Assembly: GCA_965202645.1 (NCBI GenBank)
Contig: OZ241840.1
Coordinates: forward strand, 492,088 to 556,087
Origin: Bdellovibrionales bacterium
GTDB lineage: Bacteria; Bdellovibrionota; Bdellovibrionia; Bdellovibrionales; UBA1609
Reading direction: 5' to 3'
DNA length: 64,000 bases
Positions 6,737 to 56,429 of the stretch are shown piece after piece. The notes under the pieces were generated by a model. The model saw only the letters and a program-made list of their open reading frames with translations, searched no databases and had not been told where the DNA came from. The translations under genes were made by a program, and so were the position numbers. Position 1 is the stretch's first letter; the number at the start of each line of letters is the position of its first letter.

Positions 6737-6790
6737 TTTTGTCAGGCGCCAGCCAAGAGGATTGTCTTTTATCCTATAAAGATCAAACCA

Positions 6791-14259: not shown

Positions 14260-15011
14260 GGTTCATGACAACTTAAGCTCTGTTTGATAGAGGTTAAGTT
14301 GTTGAAATGACTGTAAAAAACAAGTATTTTCTCCGTTCAAGAATTTCTGAGCCTAAATTTAGGGAAATTGTTAGGCTCTTTTCTGCCGATCTGACAGCCC
14401 AACAAATAGCTTTTTTTTCGGGAATCAGCAGAAACAGCATCAATAAAATCTTAAAAAATATCCGTATAAGAATGGCTGAGCATTGCGAGAAAAATAGCCT
14501 GTTTTCTAAAGGTCAAATAGAAATGGATGAAAGCTATTTTGGGCCTCGAAGAATACGCGGAAAAAAAGGCCGGGGAGCTTATGGAAAAACTATCGTTTTT
14601 GGCGTTAAAAAAAGACAAGGGAAGGTTTATACCCAAATCATTAAGAATTGCTCAAAAAAGGAGGTTTTGCCTCTTATAAGAGATAAAATTGACAGAAAGA
14701 CAACCCTATTTACAGACGGATTTAAGACCTATGATAGTTTAGTGGATTTGGGTTATAAGAAACATTATAGGGTGCATCACGGGAAGAATGAATTTTCTAA
14801 AAAAGAGGGGAAGATAAAAAGCCATATTAATGGCATAGAAAATTTTTGGGGGATCGCTAAAGTGAGGCTTTATAAATTTAGAGGAATGGATAAAAGAACA
14901 TTCTATTTGCATTTAAAAGAATGTGAGTTTAGATTTAATTATAGACAAGATAATTTATATGTGTTATTATTAAAAATCATCAGAAATAGACCCCTTAAGT
15001 TGTCATGAACC
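14260..15011 (+). mobile_element. IS1595-family (IS1016-like) insertion sequence, 752 bp
   Basis: Perfect 18-bp TIRs GGTTCATGACAACTTAAG (14260-14277; reverse complement at 14994-15011). Single transposase ORF. AAATAAA is duplicated at 14253-14259 and 15012-15018. Confidence 0.9.
14307..15008 (+). CDS. IS1595-family (ISXO2-like DDE) transposase
   Basis: 233 aa. The N-terminal HTH-like region, ...EMDESYFG...GKT.VFG...TDG.K.Y....H..V.H and ...HINGIENFW...K match my recollection of IS1016-group transposases. Confidence 0.88.
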   Translation: MTVKNKYFLRSRISEPKFREIVRLFSADLTAQQIAFFSGISRNSINKILKNIRIRMAEHCEKNSLFSKGQIEMDESYFGPRRIRGKKGRGAYGKTIVFGVKKRQGKVYTQIIKNCSKKEVLPLIRDKIDRKTTLFTDGFKTYDSLVDLGYKKHYRVHHGKNEFSKKEGKIKSHINGIENFWGIAKVRLYKFRGMDKRTFYLHLKECEFRFNYRQDNLYVLLLKIIRNRPLKLS

Positions 15012-24749: not shown

Positions 24750-24960
24750 AAGAATCTTTTATTTATCCACTGGGGAGCGATCCAAAACTTCAGGATAAAA
24801 TCGTATCCTATTCCCTCCGCCTCATCATAAGCTTCTCCAGACAATATAGCTCAGATGCGGATGTGACGGGCGGCAGGGCCAATATAGAGAGCCAGCAGGG
24901 CAAACAGCTGATGAGGATTATTGAGGCTTAATCCCCCTCTTCTCCAGCCAATATTTTTCA
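24750..24960 (-). pseudogene. Degenerate duplicated fragment of the adjacent cysK-like gene
   Basis: 24752-24850 aligns with 25196-25300 (…GAGCGATCCAAAACTTCAGGA(A)TAAAATCGTATCCTATTCCCTCC…). A second CTCCAGCCAATAT block follows. Confidence 0.55.
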
Positions 24961-24971: not shown

Positions 24972-25943
24972 TTAGCTCAAATCTGAGGAGGATAGAGGAA
25001 ATCCCCTCTTCCTCATCCAATCATCATTTAAAAATTTGCTCATATAGTTTTGTATCCCATCAGGCAAAATAATGACGCAATTTTGCCCTTTCTTGAGCCT
25101 TTTAGCCTCTTTTAAGCCGGCGTAAACAGCCGAGCCGGAGGACCCTCCGCATAAAACGCCCTCCAATCGAATCACTTTTCGGGCCATAGCAAAAGAATCT
25201 TTATCTGTGGTTTTTACCCATTTATCCACCAGGGAGCGATCCAAAACTTCAGGAATAAAATCGTATCCTATTCCCTCCACCTCATAAGCCTGAATAGGCT
25301 CCTCTCCAGCCAATATAGAGCCAACAGGGTCAACCCCTATTATTTCACAATGAGGGCAGGATTTCTTAATCCGTTTGGCCAGCCCTGTTAAAGTTCCGCC
25401 GGTCCCCGCCCCCGCCACAGCCATATCCAAACGGCCATTGAGATCGGATAAAATCTCTTCCGCTGTTCCCTCATAATGAGCCATGTAATTGGCCGGATTA
25501 GAATATTGATCCAAAATATGAGATCGGGGCATTTCCTCATTCAGCTTTTTAGCCACGCTGATATGGCTTTCCGGAGAGCTGGAGGCGGCTGACGCGGGCG
25601 TTCGGATAATTTTTGCCCCCAAGAGTTTTAAAATGCTCTCTTTTTCCCGGCTCATTTTTTCCGGCATAACAATGAGCGCCTTATAGCCTAAAACCGCTCC
25701 GGCCAAAGCAATGCCAATGCCCGTATTGCCGCTGGTTGGCTCAATTAAGGTGTCTCCCGGCTGAATAACTCCCTCCTCTTGGGCTTTTTTAACCATGTTA
25801 AAGGCAATGCGATCTTTAACTGAGCCTCCGGGATTAAAAAACTCGCATTTGCCGTAAATATTGGCGGGCAAATCTCCGGCTATTTTTTGCAATTTGACCA
25901 GAGGGGTTTTCCCGATGGCCTCCAAGATATTGTCAAAAAGCAT
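24972..25943 (-). CDS. cysK: PLP-dependent cysteine synthase / cystathionine beta-synthase family enzyme
   Basis: KCEFFNPGGSVKDRIA (PLP Lys), TSGNTGIGLA and GGSSG motifs. EGIGYDFIP resembles CBS-type enzymes. No CBS-pair domain is present. Confidence 0.88.
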   Translation of the reverse strand: MLFDNILEAIGKTPLVKLQKIAGDLPANIYGKCEFFNPGGSVKDRIAFNMVKKAQEEGVIQPGDTLIEPTSGNTGIGIALAGAVLGYKALIVMPEKMSREKESILKLLGAKIIRTPASAASSSPESHISVAKKLNEEMPRSHILDQYSNPANYMAHYEGTAEEILSDLNGRLDMAVAGAGTGGTLTGLAKRIKKSCPHCEIIGVDPVGSILAGEEPIQAYEVEGIGYDFIPEVLDRSLVDKWVKTTDKDSFAMARKVIRLEGVLCGGSSGSAVYAGLKEAKRLKKGQNCVIILPDGIQNYMSKFLNDDWMRKRGFPLSSSDLS

Positions 25944-30600: not shown

Positions 30601-30794
30601 AGGGCCATTTTAACAAGAAGTTTTAAATTTTACAACTGGAGAAACCGGCTGGCCGGCTCAGCTTGAAAAAAATCCCGCTTTATCTTCAGGAGCTTTGCGC
30701 TTTACAGCCGGTATAATTTGAGGCTCAATCCTTTTTTTGTCATAATCCACATTGATGGCTGGGAAGAGCCGGCATAAAAACAGAAAATATCAAC

Positions 30795-32723
30795 TCAATC
30801 CTCTTTTTTGTCATAGTCCACATTGATGGTCTCGCTGTCTCCCCCGCTTTCGCCCTCCGGTTTTTTCTCCTGTTTTTTTTCCCGGCTGGAGCTGTCCTCT
30901 TTTTTTGCGTCCTCTTTTTGAGTTTGCTTATAAACCTCCTGGCCAATTTGCTGAAAATTTTGCTTCACCTGATCTCTGATATTTTTCAGCTCATCTATGT
31001 CTATTTCATCTTTTTTCAAAGATTCTCTGGCTGTTTCAAAAGATTTTTCAGCCTCCGATTTCATGTGAGATGGGATTTTTTCCTCGTTTTCCTTTATAAT
31101 TTTTTCACACTGATAGATCATCTGATCTAATTCATTTCTTAAATTGACTATTTCTCTCCTTTTGAGGTCCTGCTCCTCATAAACCTGAGCGGATTTGATC
31201 ATTTGGCTAATCTCCTCCTCGCTCAAGCTGGGTTTGTCAATGCGAATATTTTGGCTTTTCCCTGTCGCCTGATTTTTTGCGGAAACATGAATAATCCCAT
31301 TGGAGTCAATGTCAAAAGAGACCTCAATTTTAGGAACTCCTCTGGGAGCGGGAGGAATATCCCTCAAATCAAATCGCCCCAGAGTTTTATTGTCCTTAGC
31401 CAAGCCTCTCTCCCCCTGAAGAACATGGATGGACACAACATTTTGATTGTCCTCCGCTGTGGAAAAGACCTCTGATTTTTTTGTGGGAATGGTTGTGTTT
31501 TTAGGGATTAGAGCGGTCATTACCCCGCCCAAAGTCTCTATGCCCAAAGACAAAGGCGTCACATCCAACAGCAGAACATCCTTTATCTCATTGGACAAAA
31601 TGCCCGCCTGGACAGCGGCTCCGGCCGCCACAACCTGATCGGGATTGACTGAAAGATTTAAGTCTTTGTTAAAAAAATTTTTCACCGCGGACTGGACCGC
31701 CGGAATGCGTGTGCTTCCCCCAACCATGATCACCTCATTGATTTCATCCACTGTGAGATTGGCGTCCTTTAAAACTGTCTCGCAGGGCTTTAGAGTTTTT
31801 TGAACCAGATGATCGGTCAACTGCTCAAATTTAGATCGGGTTAAAGATATGTCCAAATGCTTCGCGCCCCCCTCTCCAGCTGTAATAAAGGGAAGGTTAA
31901 TGGAGGTCTCCTGGGCGGAGCTAAGCTCCATTTTGGCCTTTTCCGCCGCCTCCCGCAGTCTTTGAAGGGCCATTTTATCCGCTCTCAAATCAATGCCCTC
32001 CATTTTTTTAAACTCATCAGCCAGCCAGCCTAAAACCGCCTCGTCAAAATCGTCTCCGCCCAGCTTTGTGTTTCCGTTTGTGGACTTCACCTCCACCAGC
32101 TGATCTGTAATGTCCAAAATAGAAATATCAAAAGTCCCTCCGCCAAAGTCATAAACAGCGACCAAGCGGTTCTCCTTTTTATCCATTCCGTAAGCCAAGG
32201 CGGCCGCTGTAGGCTCATTGATAATCCTTTTGATTTTTAAGCCCGCCACTTTGCCGGCGTCTTTTGTCGCCTGCCGTTGGGAATCATTAAAATAAGCGGG
32301 AACTGTGACCACCGCCTCTTTCACTTCCCGGCCTAAATAAGACTCCGCGTCTTTTTTGAGTTTGGATAAAATGAGAGAGGCCACTTTTTCCGGGGAGATT
32401 TCCTCACCGTGGACCAGGAAAGCGCAGTTTTCACTGCCTGATTTTTTAACTGTTTTAAAGGGGTAATTTTTAATTTCATCTTGAATTTCAGAATACAGCC
32501 GTCCAATAAATCTTTTAGAGGAAAAAATGGTGTTGCTGGGGTTGCTGACAGCCTGCCTTTTAGCAATTTGGCCAACCAGAATATCCCCTTTTTTGCCAAA
32601 GCCAACCACAGATGGCGTCGTGTAAGCCCCCTCCGCATTGGTTAAAACTTTAGGCTTGCCATTTTCAATAATGGACACCACAGAGTTTGTTGTCCCTAAA
32701 TCAATGCCGATAACCTTTCCCAT
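30795..32723 (-). CDS. dnaK: Chaperone DnaK (Hsp70)
   Basis: [17 protein letters not shown] and VGGSTRIP signatures, with a full-length Hsp70 layout. Confidence 0.97.
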
Positions 32724-33063: not shown

Positions 33064-34179
33064 TTAAAACAATTTTCTCTTTTTTTCTGAAATGGATTCC
33101 CGTTTGATGTCCGCAATTTCCCTCAAAAGCTCCTCTTCTCTTTTTTTAAGCTTTTTAGGCAGATCTACATGGATTTCACATATCAAATCGCCCCTTGTGG
33201 GATTATTTAAGCTGGGCAGGCCCCGATGAGGGAGGCGAATTTGCGCTCCGGGCTGGGTTCCGGGGGGGATTTTGACAGTCTCTTTCTCTGTCAATCCCCG
33301 CAGAGATTTTTCAGTCCCTAAAAGAGCTTGCAGATAAGAGATGGAAATAGACGCTCTGAGATCCCGCCCATCTTTTACAAACAGGGAATGGGGCTTTAAG
33401 CGAACTTCCATATAAAAATCACCGGGCGGCGCGCCGGAAGGGCCAGGCTCCCCTTCGCCCTGAAGGCGAAGTTTTGTCCCACTGCTGACGCCGGGCGGGA
33501 TTTTCACAGTCAAAGCTCTTTTTTTCCGGACAATCCCTTTGCCGTAACAATTTCCGCAAGGGCTTTCTAAAACTGAGCCTTGCCCTCCGCAGGAAGAGCA
33601 GGCTCTGGCTACAGAAAAAAAGCCTTGTTGAGAGATATGCTGCCCGCGGCCCTTGCATTGGCGGCAGGCTGTCCTTTTAGTTCCCGGCTGAGCGCCGGAG
33701 CCTTTGCAAATAGAGCAGGAGCTATGGCCGTGAAAAGAGATTTCCTTTTCCGCCCCGGTCAGAGCCTCTTTTAAGTCTAATTTCACCTCATGGTAAAGAT
33801 CAGCCCCTTTTTTGACCCTTTCAAAGTTAGAGGAGGAAAACAGCTCCTCAAATCCGCTAAAGCCTCCTCTAAAGCCTCTGCCAAAAAAGTCAGAAGCGCC
33901 AAAAATATCTTTAAAAGCCTCAAAAATATCCCCCACATCCTGAAAGCCTCCCCCTCCATTAAAGGCGCTGTGGCCGAAGCTGTCATATTTTCGCCTTTTT
34001 TTGGGATCGCCTAAAACTTGATAAGCCTCAGAGGCCTCTTTAAACTTCTCCTCCTTGCCCTTATCTCCTTTGTTTCGATCCGGATGATATTTAAAGGCCA
34101 GCTTTCTATAAGCTTTTTTAATCTCATCCTGAGAGGCGGTTTTAGAGACAGACAGAATGTCATAATAATCTTTAGGCAT
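33064..34179 (-). CDS. dnaJ: Chaperone DnaJ
   Basis: J-domain MPKDYYDIL...KYHPD, G/F region, and four CxxCxGxG zinc-finger motifs. The start is set at MPKDYY (ORF open to 34194). Confidence 0.95.
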
Positions 34180-34372
34180 AAAAATTTCCCTCAAGCTTTC
34201 TCAATCTCATCCTGAGAGGCGGTTTTAGAGACAGACAGAATGTCATAATAATCTTTAGGCATAAAAATTTCCCTCAAGCTTTCTCAATCTCATCCTGAGA
34301 GGCGGTTTTAGAGACAGACAGAATGTCATAATAATCTTTAGGCATAAAAATTTCCCTCAAGCTTTTGAGCCT
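34111..34372. repeat. 83-bp tandem triplication covering the dnaJ RBS, start codon and first 20 codons
   Basis: ATCTCATCCTGAGAGGCGG starts at 34121, 34204 and 34287. Each upstream unit encodes [23 protein letters not shown]. Confidence 0.95.
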
Positions 34373-35304: not shown

Positions 35305-35898
35305 TTATCCCGCCGTCAGAAGGCTCAAAAGCTCTTTTAGCCTAAAAAACAAATATTTAAAGAAGGAAAGGCTATAGCATTGCCAAGCTGTTTTGTCCCA
35401 GCCGATTTTTCTATAGCTCTCAGGAGCCGGCCTGTTAATAAGATCAAAAAGCAGGGGCTGATTATAGGGGACAAAATCGCTGGAGTTAAAATTTTTGCTG
35501 TAGTCCTTCGGATGAACATAATAAACATAAGAATGAATCAAGACATTTGTTTTTATATTAAAGCGATAAACATCAAAAATCTCTCTGTAAAATCCTTGCT
35601 GCTCACGCGCTGTTGTCAAATAAGCTGAGGATAAAACATTTTTGCTCAAGCGGAGGTCCAGCAGCTCCCCCCTGTATGAAAAATTAGCTGTATAAAGCTT
35701 TTTGCCGGCTTTGGAATAGTAAAAAGTTCGATCAAAATAGCTCAAAGCGCCATCAAAAGGCCGCAGGGGATCAATGCCTGTTTTAAAAGCGGATCTTAAA
35801 AAATCACAAATAAAAAAATGTTTTTCTTTAGCGGAAGAGCAAAAGCTAAAAAGAGCAAAAAACAAAATAAAAGCTGTTCCCCTCATACTCTTTATCAT
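35305..35898 (-). CDS. Hypothetical secreted protein
   Basis: Signal-like MRGTAFILFFALFSFCSSA. I recognise no family. It lies between two IS3 remnants. Confidence 0.45.
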   Translation of the reverse strand: MIKSMRGTAFILFFALFSFCSSAKEKHFFICDFLRSAFKTGIDPLRPFDGALSYFDRTFYYSKAGKKLYTANFSYRGELLDLRLSKNVLSSAYLTTAREQQGFYREIFDVYRFNIKTNVLIHSYVYYVHPKDYSKNFNSSDFVPYNQPLLFDLINRPAPESYRKIGWDKTAWQCYSLSFFKYLFFRLKELLSLLTAG

Positions 35899-36011
35899 TT
35901 AACGCCAATAAAGCCTATAATGTCAAACCGCTAAAAGGCTGAGCGGCAGACAATGACAAGTCCTGATAACCGCCAATAAAGCTTATAATGTCAAACCGCT
36001 AAAAGGCTGAA

Positions 36012-36856: not shown

Positions 36857-37265
36857 GTGAATCTTAAATTGCGGGATCAGCGGCTGGTTTTTATTGTCGG
36901 CCCTGCGGCGGCCGGAAAAACAGACTGGGCGCTCCAATGGGCGGAGCGGGACTCAGCCTGTATTTTAAATAGCGATGTTTCTCCAAACTCCACAATGGGA
37001 AGTGAATCTTAAATTGCGGGATCAGCGGCTGATTTTTATTGTCGGCCCTGCGGCGGCCGGAAAAACAGACTGGGCGCTCCAATGGGCGGAGCGGGACTCA
37101 GCCTGTATTTTAAATAGCGATGTTTCTCCAAACTCCACAATGGGAAGTGAATCTTAAATTGCGGGATCAACGGCTGGTTTTTATTGTCGGCCCTACGGCG
37201 GCCGGAAAAACAGACTGGGCGCTCCAATGGGCGGAGCGGGACTCAGCCTGTATTTTAAATAGCGA
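36857..37265. repeat. 145-bp tandem repeat (2 full units plus a partial third) duplicating the miaA 5' end including the P-loop
   Basis: GTGAATCTTAAATTGCGGGATCA starts at 36857, 37002 and 37147. Units are near-identical. The upstream copies end in ...ILNSDVSPNSTMGSES*. Confidence 0.95.
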
Positions 37266-38966: not shown

Positions 38967-39533
38967 ATGAGTCTTAAAGGCCCTTTTGTTATAGTGTCCG
39001 GCCCCAGCGGAGCGGGAAAAACCTCATTCATTCAAAAAAGTTTGGAGGAGTGGCCGCAATTCTCCAATACTGTCAGCTGGACCACCCGCCGCCCCCGCAA
39101 AGGGGAAAAAGAGGGGGCCTTTTATCGTTTCATCACAAAAAAACAATTTGAAAAGCTCAAAAGCAGTGGAGAGCTTTTAGAATGGGCCCGTGTGCACAAT
39201 GATTTTTACGCCACATCAAAAAAAGAGATTGAAAGGCTATGGCGCAAGGGGCAAGCCATTATCAAAGACATTGATGTTCAAGGATGCCGCTCCATTAAAA
39301 AAATTTTCCCGCACAGCGTAAGCGTTTTTATTTATCCCCCCTCCATCCATGAGCTGAAAAAGCGCATGTTAAAAAGAGATCCCTCTTTAAAAGAGGGAGT
39401 GGAGCAAAGGCTGGCCTCAGCCGCCGCGGAAATGGCGCAGGGCCGGAAATATGATTTTAAAATCGTCAATGACTCCTTTGAGGAGGCTTGGGGGGAATTT
39501 CAAAAAATACTCGCCCAAAGCTTAAAACCCTGA
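38967..39533 (+). CDS. gmk: Guanylate kinase
   Basis: GPSGAGKTS P-loop, TTR.PR.GE..G..Y.F, and adjacency to yicC. Confidence 0.95.
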   Translation: MSLKGPFVIVSGPSGAGKTSFIQKSLEEWPQFSNTVSWTTRRPRKGEKEGAFYRFITKKQFEKLKSSGELLEWARVHNDFYATSKKEIERLWRKGQAIIKDIDVQGCRSIKKIFPHSVSVFIYPPSIHELKKRMLKRDPSLKEGVEQRLASAAAEMAQGRKYDFKIVNDSFEEAWGEFQKILAQSLKP

Positions 39534-39740
39534 GCCGCCCGGACAAAAATTCTGTGTTTCAAGCTCAATCAGCCGCCTCCTCAATGCCGCGCCACTGAGC
39601 CGCCCGGACAAAAATTCTGTGTTTCAAGCCAGCCGTCCCTTAGCCTGTAAAAAATCCCCTCTATCTCTATACAACATAAGCGGTGGCGGGCTTGGGAAAA
39701 CTCAACCGCCCAAAGCGGGAGTTGGCGGACGGGCTGTAAA

Positions 39741-40394: not shown

Positions 40395-42218
40395 ATGAAG
40401 CAGTTTTTAGCAAAAAGCCACGGCTTAAATCCCATCCAGCCAAATAAAAAAGCCCGCCCTCCATACTGCGGCGGAGGGGGCATTCTCAGCTTAAAAGCCC
40501 TCTCCCCGCGCGGCGAAAGGCCCATCCTCCTAGGCACAGCGCTCTTTAAAGCTTTTTTCCGCCCTTCGCGCGGCGAAAGGCCCATCTTCAAATTAAAAGC
40601 CCTCTTTGCGGGCTTAGCTGTTTTCTGTCTTTCCCCGCTCTCTTGGGCTGTTCCCTTTGAGGGTTCAAAATTTGTGATCTCCGGCCCCTCCCCTCACTCT
40701 CCAGCTGTGGCTAAAGCCATTTTTAAACAAGGCGGAAACATTGTGGACATGGCAGTTGGATCAGCTCTGGCTTTGGCTGTGACTCACCCTTATTATGTGT
40801 CTCTCGGATCTGGCGGATTTGCCCTTGTCAAAATAGGCTCTTCCGTTCAGGCTTTGGATTTTCGCGAAACAGCCCCTCACAAAATGCCGGCGGATTTTTT
40901 TGAAAAAAGCGGTTTATCCTCGCAAAAAGGAGGAGCGTCTGTTGGGGTTCCGGGATTTGTGGCCGGGCTTATCGAGCTTCACAAAAAGCATGGCCGGCTG
41001 GCTTGGAGGAAACTGATTCAACCGGCTCTCTCTCTGGCGCAAAAAGGCTTCCCCGTTTCAGGTGAGTGGGCCTCTATAACTCAAACATCAAAAAGCAAAT
41101 TTAACCCCGCCGGGCGGGCTGTTTTTTTTAAAAAGGGGCGGGCTTACAAACCCAATGAGCTTTTTAAGCAGGCTAAAATGGCCCAGGCTTTAAAGCTTCT
41201 TCAAAAAAATAAAGGAAAGGCTTTTTATGGAGGCCCTATCGGCAAAGATATTGTCTCCGCGGTAAAGGGGCAAAAAGGGCTTATGACAGAGGAGGACCTT
41301 AAAAAATACACAGCCAGATGGCTGGAGCCGGTGGTTATTCCCTTTAGGGGGTATAAAATTTACAGCATGCCTCTGCCCAGCTCCGGGGGGATCATTTTAT
41401 CCCGCGCTTTAAGCCTTATTGAAAAACAAAAGCTTTTTAAAAAAGCGCTTTACAGCGCGGATGAGCTTCATCTCTTAGCGGAAATTTTGTCCAGAGCCTT
41501 TCGCCCCCGGATTTTAATGGGAGATCCCGCTTTTGCGAAAATAAAAGCGGCGGATTGGCTGTCCGGCAAAGCCTTAGAGAATATAAACAAAACCATTTTT
41601 TTAAAAAAAGCCCATCGCCTTTCCCCTTTAAAAGAGTCAGAGGAGACCACACATATAGCCCTCATGGACGCTCAGGGGAATGCCATCTCCATGACCCTTA
41701 CGCTCAATGGCTCTTATGGCTCTCATATTGTCACTAAAAAATATGGCGTCACACTCAACAATCAGATGGATGATTTTACAACCCTTCCCGGAGCCGGCAA
41801 TATGTTTAGCTTGATTCAGGGCAAAAATAATTCCATTCAAGGGGGAAAAAGGCCCCTCAGCTCTATGACTCCCTCCATAGCGGCAAAACGCGGCTCCACT
41901 GTGATGGCGCTGGGCGGAGCCGGAGGCCCAACAATTATCAGCGGGGTTTTGCAAACGCTCTATAGGCATTTAATCAATAAAATGGGCTTAGAGCAAGCCA
42001 TCTTAGCTGGCCGCCTCCATCATCAGTTTTTGCCGCGCCCCCTTTTTGTTGAAAACAAAAGCTTTAGCCCGGAGATTATCACGGAGCTTAAAATGCGAGG
42101 GCATAAAATTCAATTTAGAGATTCTATAGCCAGAGTCTTTGCTGTCTCCAAAGATAAAAACGGGAGATTGCTTTCCGCCCACGAGATCCGCGGGGAGGGA
42201 GCCTCCGGCGGCTTATAA
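40395..42218 (+). CDS. ggt: Gamma-glutamyltransferase
   Basis: GGN.VD.AV....ALAV..P...LGGGGF and the autoprocessing site ...ETTH (threonine nucleophile). The N-terminus carries a repeat-bearing 102-bp in-frame insert ahead of the signal peptide. Confidence 0.92.
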   Translation: MKQFLAKSHGLNPIQPNKKARPPYCGGGGILSLKALSPRGERPILLGTALFKAFFRPSRGERPIFKLKALFAGLAVFCLSPLSWAVPFEGSKFVISGPSPHSPAVAKAIFKQGGNIVDMAVGSALALAVTHPYYVSLGSGGFALVKIGSSVQALDFRETAPHKMPADFFEKSGLSSQKGGASVGVPGFVAGLIELHKKHGRLAWRKLIQPALSLAQKGFPVSGEWASITQTSKSKFNPAGRAVFFKKGRAYKPNELFKQAKMAQALKLLQKNKGKAFYGGPIGKDIVSAVKGQKGLMTEEDLKKYTARWLEPVVIPFRGYKIYSMPLPSSGGIILSRALSLIEKQKLFKKALYSADELHLLAEILSRAFRPRILMGDPAFAKIKAADWLSGKALENINKTIFLKKAHRLSPLKESEETTHIALMDAQGNAISMTLTLNGSYGSHIVTKKYGVTLNNQMDDFTTLPGAGNMFSLIQGKNNSIQGGKRPLSSMTPSIAAKRGSTVMALGGAGGPTIISGVLQTLYRHLINKMGLEQAILAGRLHHQFLPRPLFVENKSFSPEIITELKMRGHKIQFRDSIARVFAVSKDKNGRLLSAHEIRGEGASGGL

Positions 42219-44248: not shown

Positions 44249-44453
44249 GGAAATTATATATTTGACACCGCATTTGTAAAACCCTGAACGGTTTATGCAC
44301 GGCAAAAGTTAAACAAAATCAATAATTTATATTATTAACTATCTGCTTTCTTAGTTTTATGCACGCTTTTTGCGCTAAATCATTAAAACCTCCTGCAAGC
44401 CTTACATTTAAAGGCCATCACAGGTTTTATGCGACTTTAAGTATATAATTCCC
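44249..44453. mobile_element. MITE family A, copy 2 (205 bp)
   Basis: Near-identical to 237-441. Flanked by the exact 8-bp direct repeat ATCAGAAT (44241-44248 and 44454-44461). Confidence 0.88.
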
Positions 44454-44605: not shown

Positions 44606-45000
44606 TCCCTTTAAAATGCTATTAAACTCTGCCACCGGCGCCTTTGCTTATCAAAAAAAATGAGCCATAAATAAGGCAAAAAAAATAAAAGAATACGCAA
44701 AAACTTTAACCGCAAATAAAGACAAGGCTCTCATAAAAGCCTTATCGGCTTTTTCATCAAAATTTATAAGCCGTGCGCTTTTTTAGGATCTCTGCCGGCT
44801 TGGATCTGGCTTAAAATCAAATAAAGCCAGCCGTTTTTTCCAAAAAAAGAGGAGCTATCCGTTTAGACCAGGGGTCGGGAGAAGGCTTGGCATCAAGCCA
44901 GCCGTTTTTTCCAAAAAAAGAGGAGCTATCGTTTAAACCAGAGGCTGTAAATAAGCTGGCCGGCTTGTAAAAATAAGCTTTTGCCCTTAAAATAAAAAGC

Positions 45001-45492: not shown

Positions 45493-46416
45493 GTGAGAGG
45501 CTTTTTTATACCGCTTTTAGTCCTGATAACTTTACTATCTATATCCTGCGCTCCATTGCAGGTCATGGATGCCGCATATTTACAATCTGATAATAGCTTG
45601 GCCGGATCTATTATTGGCGAAGAAAGCTTTGATGAGGGTCATTATCAAACTTTTTCAAATGATTATAAAGATTTTCCCATGGAAAACAATAAATATATCA
45701 CGAAATGGATAAAGACTTTAACCGGAACTCTGCGGCAGGATATGACACGGTGGTTAGAGCGATCTCATAGATATCTTGATTTTATGGGAAATATTTTGAG
45801 ACAAGAGGGCTTGCCGGATGATTTTGTTTATATGGCTATGGCTGAATCCGGATTTAACCCTTACGCCATAAGCAAAAAGCAAGCTGTCGGCTACTGGCAA
45901 TTTATGAAGGGGACAGGCAAACATTATGGCTTAACCATCAACTCTTACATGGATGAGCGGAGGGATTTTGAATTATCCACCCGGGCGGCTATCCGATATC
46001 TCAAACATCTGTATGGCCTCTTTCAGGATTGGCGCCTAAGCATGGCCGCTTATAACTGGGGAGAGAGAAGGGTCAAAAAAGCCATTAACCGCCACAACAG
46101 CAAAAATTTTTGGCTTTTAGCTGAAAAAAGAGCTATGCCGGTTCAAACAAGGGACTTCGTTCCCAAGATAATGGCCATGAGAAGAATCGCCATGGATCCT
46201 GAAAAATACGGGTTTTTAAACCTGAAATATAAGCAGCCCTTAAATTACAGGCGCATCTCTTTGCAAAACGGCTCTTATTCTTTATCCCAAATTTCCCGTC
46301 AGTTAAACATTTCCCATGATGAATTGAAAAGGCTAAACTCAAAATTTAAAACGGATATTATTTCCGCCGACAAACAAAAAATTGATATTAGAGTTCCGGC
46401 CTATATTCAGCTTTAA
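45493..46416 (+). CDS. Membrane-bound lytic murein transglycosylase D-like (SLT domain plus LysM)
   Basis: MAMAESGFNPYAISKKQAVGYWQFM (catalytic E-S, GxWQF) and the C-terminal LysM-like YSLSQISRQLNISHDELKRLN. Confidence 0.85.
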   Translation: MRGFFIPLLVLITLLSISCAPLQVMDAAYLQSDNSLAGSIIGEESFDEGHYQTFSNDYKDFPMENNKYITKWIKTLTGTLRQDMTRWLERSHRYLDFMGNILRQEGLPDDFVYMAMAESGFNPYAISKKQAVGYWQFMKGTGKHYGLTINSYMDERRDFELSTRAAIRYLKHLYGLFQDWRLSMAAYNWGERRVKKAINRHNSKNFWLLAEKRAMPVQTRDFVPKIMAMRRIAMDPEKYGFLNLKYKQPLNYRRISLQNGSYSLSQISRQLNISHDELKRLNSKFKTDIISADKQKIDIRVPAYIQL

Positions 46417-46561
46417 AGCTTGCCCGGCAGGTTTAAAGCTCTGCCCTGAAAATCAATTTTTGGCTTATGGAATCTGAACAGGGGCAAAGGCTTTTTTTGA
46501 AACAGCCCAAACGAACGGTTTAACAGCTTTAAAGCTTGCCCGGCAGGTAAAGCCTTAGAAG

Positions 46562-47160: not shown

Positions 47161-48636
47161 TCATCTGCGCCGGGCTATAAAGCGCCCATCTCCAGCCAAG
47201 GATCTGTGCCGGCGATGAGCCATCATAAAAATATTATCTTCAGCCACTCCCACAATATCATTCCCCAGCTGGACAGATTTTTCCGCCGGGGAGGTGACTG
47301 TTTTTTTATTTCCACGCAAATTGCCCAAAAGCTGTTTCATCTGATCAGCCAAAGAGTTGGGCTTTTTCTTTGCAATCGCCCGTTTTAGGCCAGGCCCACC
47401 AGAGGATCCGGCTAAGGAGGCTTCGCCCCCGGAAAATTGAGACGCGGACATATCCGCGCCTAAATCCTCAACGGCCTCTAAATCATCCTCTCCGCCGGCT
47501 AAATCCACACCCAGTCCGCTGCTCAGCTGACCCGCGTTTTTTTGGCTCGGGATTTTTATTCCCTTTTTAGCCAAATAAGCCGCATTACTTTTGTGAAGCG
47601 GAGCCAACACTTCATCAACATGCTCCTGCTCCTTTGGAGAAAGATCTTTAATCAAGCCCGTTGTTGACGCAAAAGGCCTCATGCCTTTAGGAGGCCATGT
47701 TCGCCCTTCCTCTCTGGCCATCGCCGTAAAAGCGGTGGTTAGCCTTGGATCCATACCAGGAGCGGGAGTTGTAGGGGTTGGCGGATTATTTGATGGACAG
47801 CTTTCATCCCCCGGATCACAATCCCAGCCAAACGATTTTGCCATGATCTTGCAATGACTAGGATGCTTTTTACACTCAGAAGTATCCATCATATTAGGCT
47901 CGGGTTCTCCATCGTCAATGCACTCGGATGAGCCTGGCTTTTTCACACACATAGCCGATTCCGTGTTTTTAAGTTGCTTTTTTTTGTTAGCCATTAAACC
48001 AGTTTGAACCCCGGCCGCGGCGGTCATCCCCCCCCATATCCAACACCAGCCACTCTCTCTACAGCCTGGTGAAGAGCAACATGTAACCGTCTTATAGCCC
48101 AAAAAAGCTGTTGTGGCCGCTCCTACGGCGGTGAATGCGCCCATGTTTTTTCTCTTTTTGTGCACTTGGGATAAGGGGGATTTAGAGGACTCCTGTTGCA
48201 TTTTTACGCTCTTCTCGAGATCATCCAGCTCCTGTTGAGATTGGTCCGCTAGCTTTTTATGCCTATTGTATTCGTCTTTTGTCGCTTGGCACTCGCCAGT
48301 GTCACACAAAGCAAAAGAGCATTCCGGGGAGGCCGGCTGATTTGCGCCGCCATCCTCTTCTCTGGCTCTTCTATCCTCTAAACATTGTTTTTGACAGCGA
48401 TTTCGGCAGGAGGTGAGCTTTTCTAACATGCCACTGACAAGTTTTTTCTTTTCCGCCAGATCCTCTCTGGCTTTATCGATAGCCGCAGTTTTTGTGGTTT
48501 CTTCATTAGCTGGAGATTCTTCGTTAGCTGTAGTCTCTCCAGCGCCTTCAGCCCCAGCCTCTCCGTCCAACAGAGACAAACATCCCATCAGCGCGCAAAT
48601 AGCGACTCCTCTGTTAATCCTCTTTAAGTGTTTCAT
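47161..48636 (-). CDS. Hypothetical Cys-rich lipoprotein or surface protein
   Basis: Start reset to the ATG at 48636, preceded by AGGAGG. MKHLKRINRGVAICALMGC lipobox. Coiled-coil, hydrophobic central segment, and Cys and Pro/Thr-rich regions. Confidence 0.55.
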   Translation of the reverse strand: MKHLKRINRGVAICALMGCLSLLDGEAGAEGAGETTANEESPANEETTKTAAIDKAREDLAEKKKLVSGMLEKLTSCRNRCQKQCLEDRRAREEDGGANQPASPECSFALCDTGECQATKDEYNRHKKLADQSQQELDDLEKSVKMQQESSKSPLSQVHKKRKNMGAFTAVGAATTAFLGYKTVTCCSSPGCRESGWCWIWGGMTAAAGVQTGLMANKKKQLKNTESAMCVKKPGSSECIDDGEPEPNMMDTSECKKHPSHCKIMAKSFGWDCDPGDESCPSNNPPTPTTPAPGMDPRLTTAFTAMAREEGRTWPPKGMRPFASTTGLIKDLSPKEQEHVDEVLAPLHKSNAAYLAKKGIKIPSQKNAGQLSSGLGVDLAGGEDDLEAVEDLGADMSASQFSGGEASLAGSSGGPGLKRAIAKKKPNSLADQMKQLLGNLRGNKKTVTSPAEKSVQLGNDIVGVAEDNIFMMAHRRHRSLAGDGRFIARRR

Positions 48637-48654
48637 AAACGCCTCCTGCTTTTT

Positions 48655-49090
48655 TATTTTTAAAAAATTCATTGAAATCTAAGTTTTTGGCTGAATGTGA
48701 CAATCCGCAGGACTGGCTTTGCTTTGCCGGCATGAGGGCGCCCATTATACTCGCATTGTTTTCCGAGTGCCCCGGCTCCGCTTTGCCGGCGTGAGAGCGC
48801 TGTATCTGAGCCATAGCCCCTCCATTATTTCTCCTCTCTATTCCCTCGCATCCCGCTAATAACATAATTTACCCGCCTTTTTGTAAGCTCATTATTTTTA
48901 AAAAATTCATTGAGACCTAAGTTTTGGCTGAATTTGAAAATCCGCGGGCTGGCTCCGCTTTGCCGGCGTGAGAGCGCTGTATCTGAGCCATAGCCCCTCC
49001 ATTATTTTTCCCCTCTATTCCCTCGCATCCCGCTAATAACATAATTTACCCGCCTTTTTGTAAGCTCATTATTTTTTCAAAAATATGGCT
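48655..49090. repeat. About 238-bp tandem duplication containing copies of the 3' end of gene 49089..50276
   Basis: TAAAAAATTCATTGA starts at 48661 and 48899. Each unit ends GCTAATAACATAATTTACCCGC, mirroring the real gene end GCTAATAACATGATTTACCCGC. The first unit has an extra inner duplication with a 62-bp period. Confidence 0.85.
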
Positions 49091-50276
49091 AATAACATGA
49101 TTTACCCGCGTTTTCTGAGCAAAAGGATTGAATAAACCCACTCATTCTTTTAAAAATGCTGGCGCTGTTGTTGGAGCCAGCCTCCGCGAAAATATCCCGG
49201 TCTGAATGGCTTTTTTTGCCGGATGCGCTGTTTAAAGCTAATTTAGAGCTTGCCATTCCTCTTTTAGAATTATAGCCCCGGCCGCCGGCTGAATAGGAGT
49301 ATCTCCCACTGCCGGTAAAAGAGCCAGCGGAAGCTCTGGCGGATCGGAGATTTCTCTCGTCGCCGTCCTCCGAGTCTTCAGCGCCGGATTCCCCACTGCC
49401 CGCGAGCTTATTGCCGCTCTCCCCCGAAGAGCGATCTTTAGTGAATCCTTTAGAGGGTATCCCTCCTGTCAGCGAAGCGTTTGAAGAATCGGAAAGGCCG
49501 TCAGAGTTTAAGGAGGCAGCTACAGCGTCATCAGAGTTTGAGGAGCCGGCTGGGCCGCCGGAGGGCTGGCCGGAAGGCTTGCCGGAAAAGCCTGCCAAGC
49601 TTTTAGCGGAAGATCTAGGCGAAGAAGGCGGGATGGGCGTGTTGGAATTATTTTTGTTAGCGCTATCAGCAAATGTTTGTCCAGAGTAAGAGCCGGGGGA
49701 GCTGGCTTGTGGCATCTCTGGAGTGGGCGGGGCCGCAGAGCCTCCGTTTGCTCCGCAATCCGCCCCTTCACAGCCTCCCAGCTTTTTTTTCGCCAGCAAA
49801 GAGGCGGCGGATTGCATAGCGGACAGCAAGCCTTGAAGCCCAGCCGAACTGCATGTAGCGGACTGGGCCCTGCATCGCGCTAAAAAGCTTTCGTTGTCCT
49901 GTGAAGTATCAGTCCCTTCGTCGGCTGCACAGGCCGCCTCACATGCGGCTATGGCAGTTGTGCATTTTCTCCATCTGTTTAAAGCCGCAACAGAAAGAGC
50001 GCTGTTGATGGCCGCATTGGCTTTATGAGCGGTTGAGGCTGAGGCTCCGCTTATATTTTGAGTGGTGTTTGATACGACACTGGCCACCATAGCGTAATTT
50101 TCAATATTCATGCCGGAGGCGGCCTGTTCAGCGGCTGTGGCCAATTCGTTCGTGCAACCGGTGCTGGAATCTTCTGATGATGATAAAAAACAAAATCCGG
50201 CAAAAAACAAAAGCCCTGTTTTAAAAAGCACACTCCAAAAAGCGCCGTCCCCGGCTCCTCTCAAATCCCTAAACAT
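49089..50276 (-). CDS. Hypothetical secreted Ser/Gly/Ala-rich protein
   Basis: ATG at 50276 after GAGGGAGAGG (ORF open to TTG 50300). Hydrophobic N-terminus, Cys-containing helical region, and a long S/G-rich tail. Confidence 0.5.
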   Translation of the reverse strand: MFRDLRGAGDGAFWSVLFKTGLLFFAGFCFLSSSEDSSTGCTNELATAAEQAASGMNIENYAMVASVVSNTTQNISGASASTAHKANAAINSALSVAALNRWRKCTTAIAACEAACAADEGTDTSQDNESFLARCRAQSATCSSAGLQGLLSAMQSAASLLAKKKLGGCEGADCGANGGSAAPPTPEMPQASSPGSYSGQTFADSANKNNSNTPIPPSSPRSSAKSLAGFSGKPSGQPSGGPAGSSNSDDAVAASLNSDGLSDSSNASLTGGIPSKGFTKDRSSGESGNKLAGSGESGAEDSEDGDERNLRSARASAGSFTGSGRYSYSAGGRGYNSKRGMASSKLALNSASGKKSHSDRDIFAEAGSNNSASIFKRMSGFIQSFCSENAGKSCY

Positions 50277-50614
50277 CAACAAAACCTCTCCCTCAAACAA
50301 AAAAGCCCTTTTTTAAATGCCTCATTCAAACAAAAATAAACAGCTAAAAAGAATATCGGCTCGCCTAAAATAAAACTTTAGTCATTTTTTTGATCTGAGG
50401 GTTAAATTGGCCATTTTTCAGGGACGATCCGCTTTTTTTAGCGAAAAAACCCGTCCCGGCTTTAGCGCTTAATTTGCTTTAGGGAATTTAAAAGCCAGGC
50501 CAGACAAGGGTTTCAGGCAATATTGCCTTAAAATTAAGCAAATTTTGGATCGGACCAAAAAGCTCCATTAAAACTTCAAAAAAACTCTTTTTTTGTTAAA
50601 ATAGCATAAGATAT

Positions 50615-51424
50615 TTGATAAATTATAATGGCCAGCCTCTGCCTATGAATCCAGTCGTTTATAATACAATAGAGAATCAAAAAAGGCAACAGCATATATT
50701 GCCTTATCAGCTTAAAAAAGATGACGGAATTTTTTTTACAAATGAAATTAAGATTATTGATTCCATTCTTGATATCATTAAATTTGATAATAATATTGTA
50801 AATAAAAAAATTTTAGACCCCGCTGTTGGCAATGGAATTTTTTTATTAAGGATTATTGAAAAAGCATGCCAATATTGCTCAAATAAAAGAAAAATTAAAA
50901 ATTTTATAGAAAATGGCTTGTTTTTTATTGATATAGATCCCGAAAAGATAGAAAAAACAAAAAAAAATATCTTTAATTTATATAAACACCTTTTTAATGA
51001 GCGATATACAGGTGAATTTAATGGTTTTGTATATGATTTTACTGAAAAAATTGAAACAGATTTAACTTTATTCAAAGAAAAACATTGTCAAAAATTAGCC
51101 AGTTTGTTGCGCAAAATGGATTATGTTGTTGGCAATCCGCCGTATGTCACTCTTTATGGCCGAAGAGACAGAAAAAAAAGTGAATCGCAAAGAGTTAAAT
51201 ATTTAAATCAATATAGCCAATTTCCTCAAAATTTAAAGAATGGAAAAATTAATTATATAATGCTTTTTATTGAGTATAGTTTGGAGTATCTAAAGAAAAA
51301 TGGGAAATTATCTTTTATTGTGGATATATCTTTTTTTGAAACAGCTTATAAATATACAAGGAAATATCTTCTAGAGAATGTTAAAATCCTCTCCTCTATT
51401 GATATTTTCTTCAAGATTTCTTGA
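50615..51424 (+). CDS. N6-adenine DNA methyltransferase (gamma-type, Eco57I/TaqI-like), apparently truncated
   Basis: Motif I ILDPAVGNGIFLL and motif IV VVGNPPYV. The ORF ends after 269 aa with no target-recognition region. It lies in a visibly AT-rich patch. Confidence 0.7.
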   Translation: MINYNGQPLPMNPVVYNTIENQKRQQHILPYQLKKDDGIFFTNEIKIIDSILDIIKFDNNIVNKKILDPAVGNGIFLLRIIEKACQYCSNKRKIKNFIENGLFFIDIDPEKIEKTKKNIFNLYKHLFNERYTGEFNGFVYDFTEKIETDLTLFKEKHCQKLASLLRKMDYVVGNPPYVTLYGRRDRKKSESQRVKYLNQYSQFPQNLKNGKINYIMLFIEYSLEYLKKNGKLSFIVDISFFETAYKYTRKYLLENVKILSSIDIFFKIS

Positions 51425-52404: not shown

Positions 52405-52728
52405 GCAGGCTCTTCAGTCTTCTCTATATTGACTCAAGCTAAACAGATAAGCCAACTGATAATACAGCTCTTCAGCTTGAGCCTTCCCCATATTGACTCA
52501 AACTACACGGCTAAGCCAACTGATAATACAACTCTTCAGCTTGAGCCTTCCCCATATTGACTCAAACTACACAGCTAAGCCAACTGATAATACAGCTTTT
52601 CAGCCTAGACCTTCCCTATATTGACTCAAACTACACAGCTAAGCCAACTGATAATACAGCTTTTCAGCCTAGACCTTCCCTATATTGACTCAAACTACAC
52701 AGCTAAGCCAACTGATAATATGAACTGA
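52405..52728. repeat. 64-bp tandem repeat x5 immediately upstream of dapD
   Basis: TATTGACTCAA starts at 52427, 52491, 52555, 52619 and 52683. Confidence 0.95.
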
Positions 52729-52868
52729 GCGCCGCATATTCAAAAAATAGGTTGTATTTTTGTTAAAATTCCCTCAAGCTCTAACAATAAGCTTGAGTTC
52801 GTGACGGATCAAGCTATAAAACAGCCCCCGCCCTTTTAAAAATAGCGGGAAAACAAAGGACTGCGCTT

Positions 52869-56418: not shown

Positions 56419-56429
56419 CTAGGGATCAT

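Follow-up and report, generated by a model that had tools for sequence, protein, structure and literature searches.

Short direct repeats around unrelated filler at gene boundaries in a 64-kb window of a Bdellovibrionales genome

In this study, which followed up an earlier sequence-only reading of this DNA, 20 short-range direct-repeat loci were detected in a window of 64 kb, the whole stretch of DNA that was analysed and about 3% of the genome, when repeats of 18 bp or longer were sought at lags of 4 to 1000. The same scan found no locus in any of five Markov-1 simulations. At 23 dnaK loci of other genomes, 0 to 2 repeat loci were found in each (about 20 kb), coding repeats for the most part, and the nearest relatives showed 0 to 3 per 10 to 22 kb. 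The repeat loci are genuine and lie far above both chance and other genomes. Their periods had been proposed to cluster, and the fundamental lag indeed falls within 56-83 bp at 12 of the 17 non-coding loci. The set is of mixed kinds and contains plain tandem arrays, a miniature inverted-repeat element (MITE) and insertion-sequence debris, besides about 12 loci with the order A-F-A, i.e. a copy A, an unrelated filler F and a second copy A. At these loci A measures 25-40 bp and, in two cases, 119-132 bp (recorded lengths 25, 26, 27, 30, 35, 39, 40, 119 and 132 bp). Each event has added 56-180 bp of DNA, which corresponds to the second A and, at most sites, a unique F of about 32 bp. The following sites were described individually.

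30724 to 30829, minus strand: dnaK 3' end; genic A 30794-30829, filler 30759-30793 (35 nt), extragenic A 30724-30758; 33 of 35 positions match, plus one 1-nt indel.
39530 to 39629, plus strand: gmk stop-codon region; A 39530-39564, filler 39565-39594 (30 nt), A 39595-39629; 35/35 identical.
59898 to 59998, minus strand: sucD/ndk junction; A 59969-59998, filler 59928-59968 (41 nt), A 59898-59927; 30/30 identical.
58490 to 58599, minus strand: rodZ 5' end; functional copy 58490-58529, filler 58530-58559, diverged upstream copy 58560-58599 (40 bp at 85% identity, 16 bp exact).
9927 to 10016, unstranded: A-F-A upstream of the minus-strand ORF 9451-9900; A of 26 bp at 9927 and 9991 (26/26 identical), filler of 38 nt.
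35903 to 36010, unstranded: A-F-A upstream of the minus-strand ORF 35305-35898; A of 40 bp (39/40 identical), filler of 28 nt.
44821 to 44930, unstranded: intergenic A-F-A; A of 39 bp at 44821 and 44892 (38/39 identical), filler of 32 nt.
46408 to 46548, plus strand: 3' end of an SLT-domain (mltD-like) gene; A 46408-46432, filler of 91 nt, A 46524-46548; 25/25 identical.
48654 to 49114, minus strand: nested duplications between two genes; periods 56, 59 and 177.
36857 to 37265, plus strand: miaA 5' end; A of 119 bp present three times at 98-99% identity, with two identical 26-nt fillers between.

The genic A of dnaK comprises the last 32 coding nucleotides, the stop codon (30795-30797) and one further nucleotide. 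The stop codons of gmk (39531-39533) and of the mltD-like gene (46414-46416) lie inside the first A. At the sucD/ndk junction, the copy at 59969-59998 holds the end of sucD with its stop codon (59975-59977) and the copy at 59898-59927 holds the ribosome-binding site and start of ndk; the insert forms a bridging ORF of 22 amino acids, and the TGA-TC-ATG coupling is kept at both of its ends. The start codon in the functional rodZ copy ends at 58520, and the A at 35903 contains a TTGACA box. At miaA, A spans the GTG start to codon 40, and the 26-nt filler is found in neither flank. The nested site is more complex: the 3' end of the gene at 49089-50300 is present three times (49088, 49032, 48855), the 5' end of the gene at 47161-48672 twice (48654, 48892) and a 27-bp segment three times (48715, 48774, 48951).

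The sequence-only reading had listed pairs at dnaK (now period 70/71), sucD/ndk (period 71), the rodZ start (period 70), 9928/9992 (period 64), 44824/44895 (period 71), 35903/35971 (period 68) and the mltD-like 3' end (period 116), all of which were recovered. Its gmk pair also stands with a period of 65, but the repeat, whose first nucleotide directly precedes the stop codon, consists largely of downstream sequence. For the pair placed at 48719/48781 with a period of 62, the correct copies are 48715/48774 with a period of 59, within the nested 177-bp duplication. The label of gene terminus had to be given up for 9927, 35903, 44821 and the array upstream of tRNA-His, which are promoter or intergenic segments instead. 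The miaA case (145 bp × 2.8, 36857-37265) had not been listed.

The filler is 26-41 nt long (mean 32.2, sd 4.0). At the exact lag its identity to the flanks is 26.5% and 23.8%, i.e. random, and this holds even at pairs that are 99-100% identical (gmk, sucD/ndk, 9927, 46408, miaA). The idea that fillers are decayed flank copies was rejected on the basis of this random identity, and they were unrelated to the flanks from birth. An anchored alignment test of filler against flanks gave p=0.10 overall, carried by a single site, 44821, which is the only one with weak homology running about 14 nt past A. Apart from this site, anchored or local alignment was positive only at 49032, whose filler derives from the neighbouring nested duplicate, and marginally so at dnaK. 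In k-mer make-up, the fillers correspond to coding DNA of their own genome and not to its non-coding DNA (held-out P(noncoding >= observed) 0.001-0.013). Nevertheless, no source was found within ±3 kb on either strand, nor across the 64-kb window, and no nearby template with switch-point microhomology was seen within ±3 kb. Inverted, reversed or complemented templates nearby were rejected, as scores were no better than those of reversed or complemented-context controls; a local excess of 7-mers was weak (p=0.04). Five fillers had no exact match in IMG/VR, and a blastn search with 13 pooled fillers against E. coli genomes and 50,697 phage records was likewise empty. Neither the MITE end nor the tRNA-His repeat was matched in JGI metagenomes. 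An identity as hairpin or MITE-like elements was also rejected (folding z-scores −1.8 to +1.0, no terminal inverted repeats (TIR)), as was an origin from the two MITE families or IS1595 or a relation among the fillers, given no similarity and no shared ends. The 26-41-nt fillers carry no TIR and no significant hairpin, and all are unrelated. No sequence is common to any two of them, or to a filler and a mobile element of the window, and they are therefore not one mobile element, as had been stated before. A target motif shared by the A copies across sites was sought, and none is present.

Comparison with orthologous loci of relatives (84-89% protein identity) polarised the events as derived insertions at four sites, the kind of comparison that the sequence-only reading had called for. 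Relatives are single-copy at dnaK 3', dnaJ 5', sucD/ndk and rodZ 5', and therefore the duplicated state in the window is derived. One relative, L024, has one copy of the dnaK 3' end, with a dnaK-spoT gap of 65 bp versus 194 bp in the window genome, and a single copy at the dnaJ 5' end. At the sole substitution between the two dnaK copies, the extragenic copy carries the base of L024. L026 and L027 have one sucD/ndk junction with a spacer of 9-11 bp, and L026 is single-copy at rodZ 5' with a spacer of 25 bp. The events are lineage-specific and mostly recent. A few similar events occur in the independent assemblies of relatives, and in L024 a complete tandem duplication of 153 bp lies at the start of a gene, with a 77/77-identical core and edges that carry substitutions and indels. 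No relative closer than 84-89% in protein identity was found for polarising the events; P0121, which had looked closer, was rejected, being an unrelated SucD with an internal duplication.

The position of the events at gene ends was shown statistically to be accounted for by purifying selection. Gene interiors, into which about 77% of random targets would fall, are avoided by at least 14 of the 16 events. In a compact genome, roughly one in two tolerated positions takes in a start or stop codon; an association with gene ends is therefore predicted if random events are followed by purifying selection. No harm is done only where the duplicated target is intergenic or includes a start or stop codon, each gene then being completed by one of the copies, and hence the events pile up at boundaries. 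The gene terminus as a preferred target, which the sequence-only reading had implied, is thus replaced by an avoidance of gene interiors.

Three arrays lack filler.

34110 to 34365, minus strand: dnaJ 5' end; pure tandem triplication, 83 bp × 3.1, no filler.
52412 to 52731, unstranded: tandem array upstream of dapD (51567-52370, minus strand); 64 bp × 4.7.
8237 to 8458, unstranded: tandem array between the convergent genes rpsD and doxX; 74 bp × 2.6.

The dnaJ unit consists of the ribosome-binding site and 23 initial codons; AAGCTT microhomology is present where units meet, and the array yields two upstream ORFs of 23 amino acids. The array at 52412 adjoins a truncated Transposase_31/YhgA-like ORF. 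That between rpsD and doxX (8243 array, with the 2.6 units at 8243-8433) leaves 1-2 nt to the stop codon of doxX, and its edge copies are degenerate. These longer arrays, together with the 58-60-bp periods upstream of tRNA-His, agree with those reported before. In all three, the whole unit is repeated head-to-tail, as in a simple tandem repeat whose junction is explained by flanking microhomology, which does not apply to the two-copy A-F-A sites with their random identity between filler and flank. Tandem duplication of the ordinary, microhomology-mediated kind accounts for the dnaJ, 52412 and 8243 arrays, which may have arisen by another mechanism than the A-F-A sites. The common mechanism suggested for arrays and two-copy sites is undemonstrated, and the list mixes kinds; the periods do cluster. 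Microhomology-mediated tandem duplications and intergenic minisatellites are known from intracellular bacteria, e.g. the VNTR loci of Wolbachia. The dnaJ, 64-bp and 74-bp arrays are head-to-tail and lie in non-coding DNA like these, whereas most sites in the window are not and have had unrelated filler between the copies from the outset.

A further array and two MITE copies bear on the origin of long duplications.

1349 to 1721, plus strand: array upstream of tRNA-His; four 26-27-bp repeats (1349, 1576, 1634, 1694) and three unrelated spacers of 30-34 nt.
1388 to 1572, minus strand: MITE copy of 161 bp (1400-1560), situated in spacer 1 of the tRNA-His array, with the 12-bp target duplication ACAAGGGCTGTT on either side.
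56403 to 56613, plus strand: MITE of 157 bp (56430-56586) with TIR CCTGAGTTCGCC, abutting a 27-bp target duplication at 56403-56429 and 56587-56613 (25/27 identical).

The tRNA-His repeats end in TTGACA, and their periods are 59, 58 and 60 after removal of the MITE. One target of 26-27 bp is here combined with three different fillers, and therefore amplification of a unit cannot be the source. The features of a transposable element (TIR, several copies, abutting duplication) were found for the 157-bp MITE only, which has two copies with 86% identity. Its ends abut the 27-bp and the 12-bp duplication, and long target duplication thus exists in this genome; at the IS1595 copy and in the second MITE family, the duplications are of an ordinary 7-8 bp. 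The 27-bp duplication covers the stop codons of both convergent genes and saves them in the same way as the A-F-A sites do. Long, variable target duplications are reported for the IS1634 and IS1182 families. The sites in the window resemble transposable-element target duplications in their direct repeats round inserted DNA, as in the MITE copies, but the 26-41-nt fillers lack TIR, differ from site to site and fall far short of the length of known elements. The 54834 array (54834-54965) was at first taken as A-F-A and then rejected as right-end debris of IS1595, and a lag-460 match at 24761 was rejected as an event, being a degraded cysK fragment. The MITE at 56403 and the debris at 54834 were absent from the earlier list and have ordinary explanations.

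Among the mechanisms considered, we tentatively regard an integration-type insertion of captured fragments of about 32 bp with a long staggered target duplication as the likeliest. The target would be cut with a long stagger (about 25-40 nt) and the fragment integrated, and both single-stranded gaps would then be filled in to give A-F-A. F would come from elsewhere, being gene-like in composition. Potentially, the same target is struck repeatedly, which would produce repeat-spacer-repeat mini-arrays, and unequal recombination might later amplify some units, as at miaA. Staggered-cut integration followed by gap fill-in is carried out by transposases and by the Cas1-Cas2 integrase, and the A-F-A anatomy is that of a long target-site duplication round a short insert. 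In favour of this reading stand the derived state of the sites, the filler that was unrelated from birth, has no local template, is narrow in length and is coding-like in composition, the long duplications at the MITE and the three fillers on one target upstream of tRNA-His. However, the length of the duplication varies (25-40, 119, 132 bp), which argues against a single ruler-type integrase, since this is expected to give one length. No integrase or cas gene was found among the approximately 50 ORFs of the window that were scanned (Pfam, NCBIfam; about 3% of the genome). Moreover, the periods of the filler-free arrays (64, 74, 83 bp) overlap the range of A+F, a hint of a common length-setting process that integration does not predict. 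Fillers without TIR or shared ends, the lack of a filler source or protospacer in the collections searched and the 7-8-bp duplications of the other elements speak against it as well. The sequence-only reading had named template switching, staggered-break repair and an insertion process; the structure fits this family, but no member of it is singled out.

The main rival is template switching during replication or end joining, which we consider possible, though somewhat less likely. At a stalled or broken fork, or at staggered sister-chromatid breaks, repair would jump back on the template by 25-130 nt. Either some 30 nt would be copied from a distant template on the way (MMBIR/FoSTeS-like), or a captured fragment would be joined in at the ends; a tandem A with junctional filler would result or, with microhomology and no detour, a pure tandem duplication. 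Filler-free arrays and A-F-A sites would thus be covered together, in line with the AAGCTT microhomology in dnaJ and the full tandem duplication in L024, and a variable A, 119 and 132 bp included, would pose no difficulty. Hot spots coincide with promoters and terminators, as in the case of the tRNA-His promoter, and these are places of encounter between forks and RNA polymerase; a detour on a genic template would explain the gene-like composition of the filler. Yet no filler is templated within ±3 kb or the 64-kb window, the narrow filler length (32 ± 4 nt) is left without explanation, the three independent events in the tRNA-His array have the same A boundaries, which is unexpected for random breaks, and precise MITE ends abutting the 27-bp duplication are a transposition-type product. 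Tandem duplications with junctional insertions by MMBIR/FoSTeS, or by staggered-break fill-in and end joining, are known mainly from eukaryotes. They share with the present sites the duplicated segment, the foreign or templated junction sequence and the variable size, but differ in that the inserts in the window have no local template and a narrow length.

The geometry also resembles CRISPR spacer integration. In CRISPR adaptation, including 'neo-CRISPR' formation, an insert of about 32 bp comes to lie between target duplications of about 25-40 bp, repeated insertion at one target builds arrays, and inserts are unique and can derive from own genes. Cas1-Cas2 rulers are known to give duplications of near-constant length, whereas in the window this length varies, the 'repeat' differs from locus to locus (mostly in two copies) and two duplications reach 119-132 bp. 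A CRISPR array has near-identical repeats of constant length and unique spacers of similar length; here the fillers measure 26-41 nt and the tRNA-His array has four repeats, three unique spacers and periods of 58-60, but repeat length is not the same at all loci (25-40, 119 and 132 bp). Neither cas genes, leader, canonical array nor protospacer were found in the window and the searched collections, and Rfam CRISPR-DR gave no match at the gathering threshold across the window, nor at E<=1 over 1200-1900. It is decidedly unlikely, in our view, that a Cas1-Cas2 encoded elsewhere in the genome integrates prespacers taken from the cell's own DNA outside CRISPR loci, each insertion duplicating a stretch of target about as long as one repeat, so that 'neo-CRISPR' mini-arrays arise: the inserts (mean 32 nt), the duplications of mostly 25-40 bp, the periods of 56-71 bp, the unique, gene-like fillers and the multi-spacer arrays with one repeat and different spacers would fit, but the range of duplication lengths, the window without cas gene or canonical array, the lack of a spacer match in viral, phage or metagenome collections and targets without a common motif speak against it. 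In E. coli, off-target integration that spawns new arrays has been reported (Nivala et al. 2018, cited both in bioRxiv 10.1101/148544 and in PMC6698737). Improbable to a still greater degree, and already disfavoured, are old tandem duplications of 56-83-bp units in which A was kept by selection or short-patch gene conversion and F decayed. This would account for a period that is conserved though the split between A and F varies, for the degenerate homology past A at 44821 and perhaps dnaK, and for the identical core between diverged parts in L024, and arrays near tRNA genes could be putative spaced binding sites. Against it stand the random filler/flank identity in the expected register even at 100% identical A, the miaA filler unlike either flank beside a 119-bp A at 98-99%, the junk copies of coding termini without reason for conservation and a filler composition that is coding-like and unlike decayed spacer. 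Amplification chimeras or the assembler as the source of the local duplications are hardly credible, even though the source is a metagenome-assembled chromosome. An artefact would strike coding sequence about 77% of the time, and the events spare gene interiors; moreover, the copies are nested, amplified with mutations and carry substitutions and indels, the junk dnaK copy retains the ancestral base, and relatives assembled independently show similar events.

It is unlikely, but conceivable, that an integrase of this Oligoflexia lineage (Cas1-Cas2-like, casposase-like or the enzyme that moves the 157-bp MITE) inserts measured own-gene fragments of about 32 bp chromosome-wide with target duplications of 25-40 bp. 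If this were true, hundreds of repeat-spacer-repeat units and small multi-spacer arrays would be present, and a natural, ongoing birth of proto-CRISPR arrays would be visible since selection leaves its products at gene boundaries. Integrase att-site duplications likewise hold a gene terminus in a direct repeat and leave the gene intact after insertion; however, they flank kb-sized islands at one specific site, whereas in the window inserts of about 32 bp are spread over numerous unrelated sites, which include 5' ends and promoters. We found no description in the literature of bacterial gene-end duplications with filler, and to our knowledge a density of about one per 4 kb in a bacterial genome is undescribed.

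Of the window, 3.6% consists of the catalogued events, which also represent about 17% of the non-coding DNA in it. Intergenic spacers of 10-65 bp, as present in relatives, have been expanded by them to 70-190 bp. Small upstream ORFs and duplicated ribosome-binding sites have arisen at the essential genes dnaJ, miaA, ndk and rodZ, and duplicated gene ends can mislead gene callers (miaA ATG 37120 versus GTG 37147; dnaJ TTG call). If the density of 16 events per 64 kb holds genome-wide, roughly 500 would be present in 2.2 Mb, which would be a distinctive bacterial mutational signature. The origin of the filler would reveal the process behind it, either capture of short DNA by an integrase, akin to the way in which CRISPR arrays originate, or replication or repair with an unusual defect. 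Either process would be informative on how non-coding DNA is gained in compact symbiont-like genomes.

The last 32 coding bases and the stop codon of dnaK (30794-30829, reverse strand) are repeated at 30724-30758, and a filler of 35 nt separates the two copies. This copy of the dnaK terminus had been claimed in a sequence-only reading of the window, and all other pairs and arrays listed there were likewise found, with small corrections. A direct-repeat scan (repeats of at least 18 bp, lags 4-1000) detected 20 loci in the window and none in five Markov-1 simulations of it, so the presumed excess over control sequence exists at window scale. Such loci number 0-2 per ~20 kb at 23 dnaK loci of other bacteria, where they are mostly coding repeats, and 0-3 per 10-22 kb in the nearest relatives. 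The proposed clustering of periods was also observed, with a fundamental lag of 56-83 bp in 12 of 17 non-coding loci.

Three classes of site have to be separated: copy-filler-copy sites, pure tandem arrays and sites with an ordinary explanation. The duplicated target of the copy-filler-copy sites has lengths of 25-27 bp (five loci), 30 bp (one), 35-40 bp (five) and, at two further loci, 119 and 132 bp. The filler measures 26-41 nt (mean 32.2, sd 4.0; outliers 45 and 91 nt). At miaA, the unit of target (119 bp) and filler (26 nt) was amplified, giving three target copies with two fillers between them, and the filler is missing from both flanks. A further pair (57581-57607/57649-57675; target ~20 bp, AAAGGC(T)CGTAAAATTAGGG, period 68) lies in the unusually long rnt-rodZ spacer (~520 bp, 57213-57734). 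The pure tandem arrays are:

dnaJ, 83 bp x3.1, AAGCTT at both unit borders
52412, 64 bp x4.7
8243, 74 bp x2.6

The periods of these filler-free arrays (64, 74 and 83 bp) fall in the same range as target plus filler (56-71 bp), which may be coincidence or may reflect a common length-setting step that no model predicts. The 64-bp array is adjoined by a truncated ORF (52869-53297) for a Transposase_31/YhgA-like (Rpn-type PD-(D/E)XK) nuclease, and an Eco57I/N6-methylase fragment of 269 aa lies at 50615-51424. Nucleases of the Transposase_31/YhgA-like (Rpn-type) kind are reported to promote RecA-independent recombination, and therefore this one could be relevant to the duplications. The match at 24761 is not a copy-filler-copy site but a decayed internal cysK fragment (24751-24850 against 25195-25318, ~84% identity with indels) directly downstream of cysK (24972..25943, reverse strand); it appears to be left over from a larger duplication or a lost paralogue.

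The window (44.3% G+C) encodes the housekeeping genes spoT, dnaK, dnaJ, miaA, gmk, ggt, sufE, dapD, fumarase-like, rnt, rodZ, ndk, sucCD and mdh, besides ankyrin and Sel1 repeat proteins. The genomes closest to it belong to uncultured Oligoflexia/Bdellovibrionales (MAGs, 1.8-1.9 Mb, 35-40% G+C), with DnaK identity of 78-86% and SucD identity of up to 89%. G+C is 44% in the window versus 35-40% in the nearest relatives (L001, L002, L022, L024, L026, L027), and spacers measure 70-190 bp versus 10-65 bp. In L024, 65 bp separate dnaK from spoT, compared with 194 bp in the window, and the dnaJ 5' end is single-copy. L026 and L027 have 9-11 bp between sucD and ndk, where the window has a 71-bp insert, and L026 has 25 bp between TPR and rodZ, compared with 183 bp in the window. 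Since the relatives are single-copy with short spacers at all four comparable sites, the suggested comparison with orthologous loci polarises the events, and the window state is derived. The two dnaK copies differ at one substitution and the extragenic copy has the base of L024, which would be a product of real evolutionary history and not an artefact.

Among the relatives, numerous fragmented genes in L026 (fumarase, amino-acid permease) suggest genome decay. In L024, the closest relative, the start of a lipoprotein gene is spanned by a tandem duplication of 153 bp (6644-7123); the 77-bp core of this duplication is identical (77/77), its flanks carry substitutions and two indels, and it adjoins a ~190-bp palindrome with arms of ~75 bp. 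A 444-aa SucD with a ~150-residue internal duplication (P0121; ENA contig k141_422085) scored above the self-hit in the SucD search. It comes from an unrelated organism of 34.5% G+C and was rejected as a relative; its internal duplication probably either reflects mis-assembly or exists in the gene itself.

An event was taken to spare a gene unless the target lay wholly within it. Of random 25-40-bp targets in the window, about 77% would fall wholly within a gene, whereas at least 14 of 16 catalogued events do not. Two events seem to break this pattern: one involves a spurious ORF over the tRNA-His gene, the other is an in-frame repeat of 60 bp preceding the ggt signal peptide. The latter (40468-40607, 20 codons, RGERPI...) lies within a ~100-residue extension of the long ORF call for this gamma-glutamyltransferase, whose start codon is uncertain. 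About 9 of 15 events overlap a start or stop codon. The proposed association with gene ends is thus present, but at the level that purifying selection on position-blind events predicts, because by our estimate about half of the tolerated positions in a compact genome overlap such codons. As consequences, a 22-aa ORF bridges sucD and ndk with TGA-TC-ATG coupling retained at both ends, and small ORFs lie upstream of dnaJ (two of 23 aa), miaA (two truncated MiaA N-termini, 51 aa each) and rodZ (27 aa).

Copy-filler-copy sites might be decayed tandem duplications, in which case the filler should resemble the sequence one period away. At that exact register, identity is only random, at 117/442 (26.5%) upstream and 105/442 (23.8%) downstream. 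This holds even where the targets are 100% identical (gmk 35/35, sucD/ndk 30/30, 9927 26/26, 46408 25/25) and at miaA, where they are 98-99% identical over 119 bp; anchored filler-flank alignments were positive at 44821 only. By this comparison the fillers were unrelated to their flanks from insertion onward. Within 3 kb on either side, no source was found on either strand, and reversed and complemented controls scored equally. None was found elsewhere in the 64-kb window or in the relatives' loci; for the window this is uninformative, because by our estimate only ~0.4 sources are expected there (13 fillers, 3% of the genome in view). As claimed before, the fillers share no sequence with one another, nor do they resemble either MITE family or IS1595. 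They contain no significant hairpins and have no matches in IMG/VR, GenBank phages or E. coli genomes. Nevertheless, they are not arbitrary but gene-like in composition: their G+C is 47.5% (window coding 45.2%, non-coding 40.9%), and held-out Markov-model tests assign them, by k-mer make-up, to coding DNA (probability that a non-coding sample reaches the observed score, 0.001-0.013).

The mobile elements of the window are:

56430-56586, 157-bp MITE, terminal inverted repeat CCTGAGTTCGCC, flanked by a lag-184 pair (56403/56587)
1400-1560, second copy of this MITE, 86% identity
237-441 and 44249-44453, second MITE-like family, ~205 bp, copies 97.6% identical, inverted ends of ~25 bp (GGAAATTATATATTTGACACCGCAT)
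14260-15011, IS1595-family element, transposase ORF 14307..15008, 14-bp terminal inverted repeat GGTTCATGACAACT

A 27-bp duplication (25/27 identical) abuts both ends of the 56430-56586 MITE and includes the stop codons of the convergent fumarase-like gene and rnt; the copy at 1400-1560 has a 12-bp duplication. Thus, long and variable target duplication occurs in this genome and preserves gene ends. The 205-bp family has ordinary 8-bp target duplications (CATTTTTT and ATCAGAAT) and the IS1595-family element, unlike the 157-bp MITE, an ordinary one of 7-8 bp. The array at 54834 is not a copy-filler-copy site but debris of the IS1595 right end, with three tandem degenerate copies upstream of the fumarase-like gene (54800-54965). 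The IS1595 14-mer also occurs twice in L002 (3333-3346, 5578-5591). The 1400-1560 MITE lies within a spacer of a tRNA-His array. With the MITE removed, this array consists of four 26-27-bp repeats (periods 59, 58 and 60) and three unrelated spacers, i.e., one target was hit three times independently, at the same boundaries. No match to the MITE end or the tRNA-His repeat was found in JGI metagenomes. A weaker array (1090-1276) between tRNA-Pro and the tRNA-His array has four degenerate 22-25-bp repeats (consensus ~CCCTnnTTTACATGCGGAAAAA; spacings 59, 51 and 51 bp) with unrelated spacers and two alternating subtypes (lag 102).

Tentatively, we infer an integration-type insertion, because the filler is independent of local sequence and narrow in length, one target was hit repeatedly at constant boundaries, and the MITE provides a precedent. 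A long-stagger cut would open the target, a short DNA would then be joined to it, and filling of both gaps would leave the target duplicated on either side of the insert. The main rival, in which replication switches templates or staggered breaks are end-joined around a junctional insert, is possible, though somewhat less likely. It accounts for the dnaJ microhomology as well as for the arrays without filler, and allows any duplication length, yet it leaves the absence of local templates, the narrow filler length and the repeated identical boundaries unexplained. Old duplications whose core was conserved or converted are improbable, given the random filler identity beside perfectly matching targets. 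An artefact is very improbable: the avoidance of gene interiors counts strongly against mis-assembly, and the extragenic dnaK copy carries the relative's base.

Among known processes, Cas1-Cas2 spacer integration comes closest; in E. coli, its off-target form was reported to give rise to new arrays (Nivala et al., 2018). However, the sites are not filed as CRISPR products, because duplication length is variable, exceeding 100 bp at two sites, and no cas gene or canonical array was found in the window and no protospacer in the window and the collections searched. Intergenic minisatellites have been described before, as have target-site duplications and junctional insertions, whereas our literature search found no bacterial genome described with about one copy-filler-copy insertion per 4 kb and unique, gene-like fillers of ~32 nt. 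In summary, the events in this genome are real and derived; they duplicate a target, usually add a foreign, gene-like piece of ~32 nt, and are filtered by selection.
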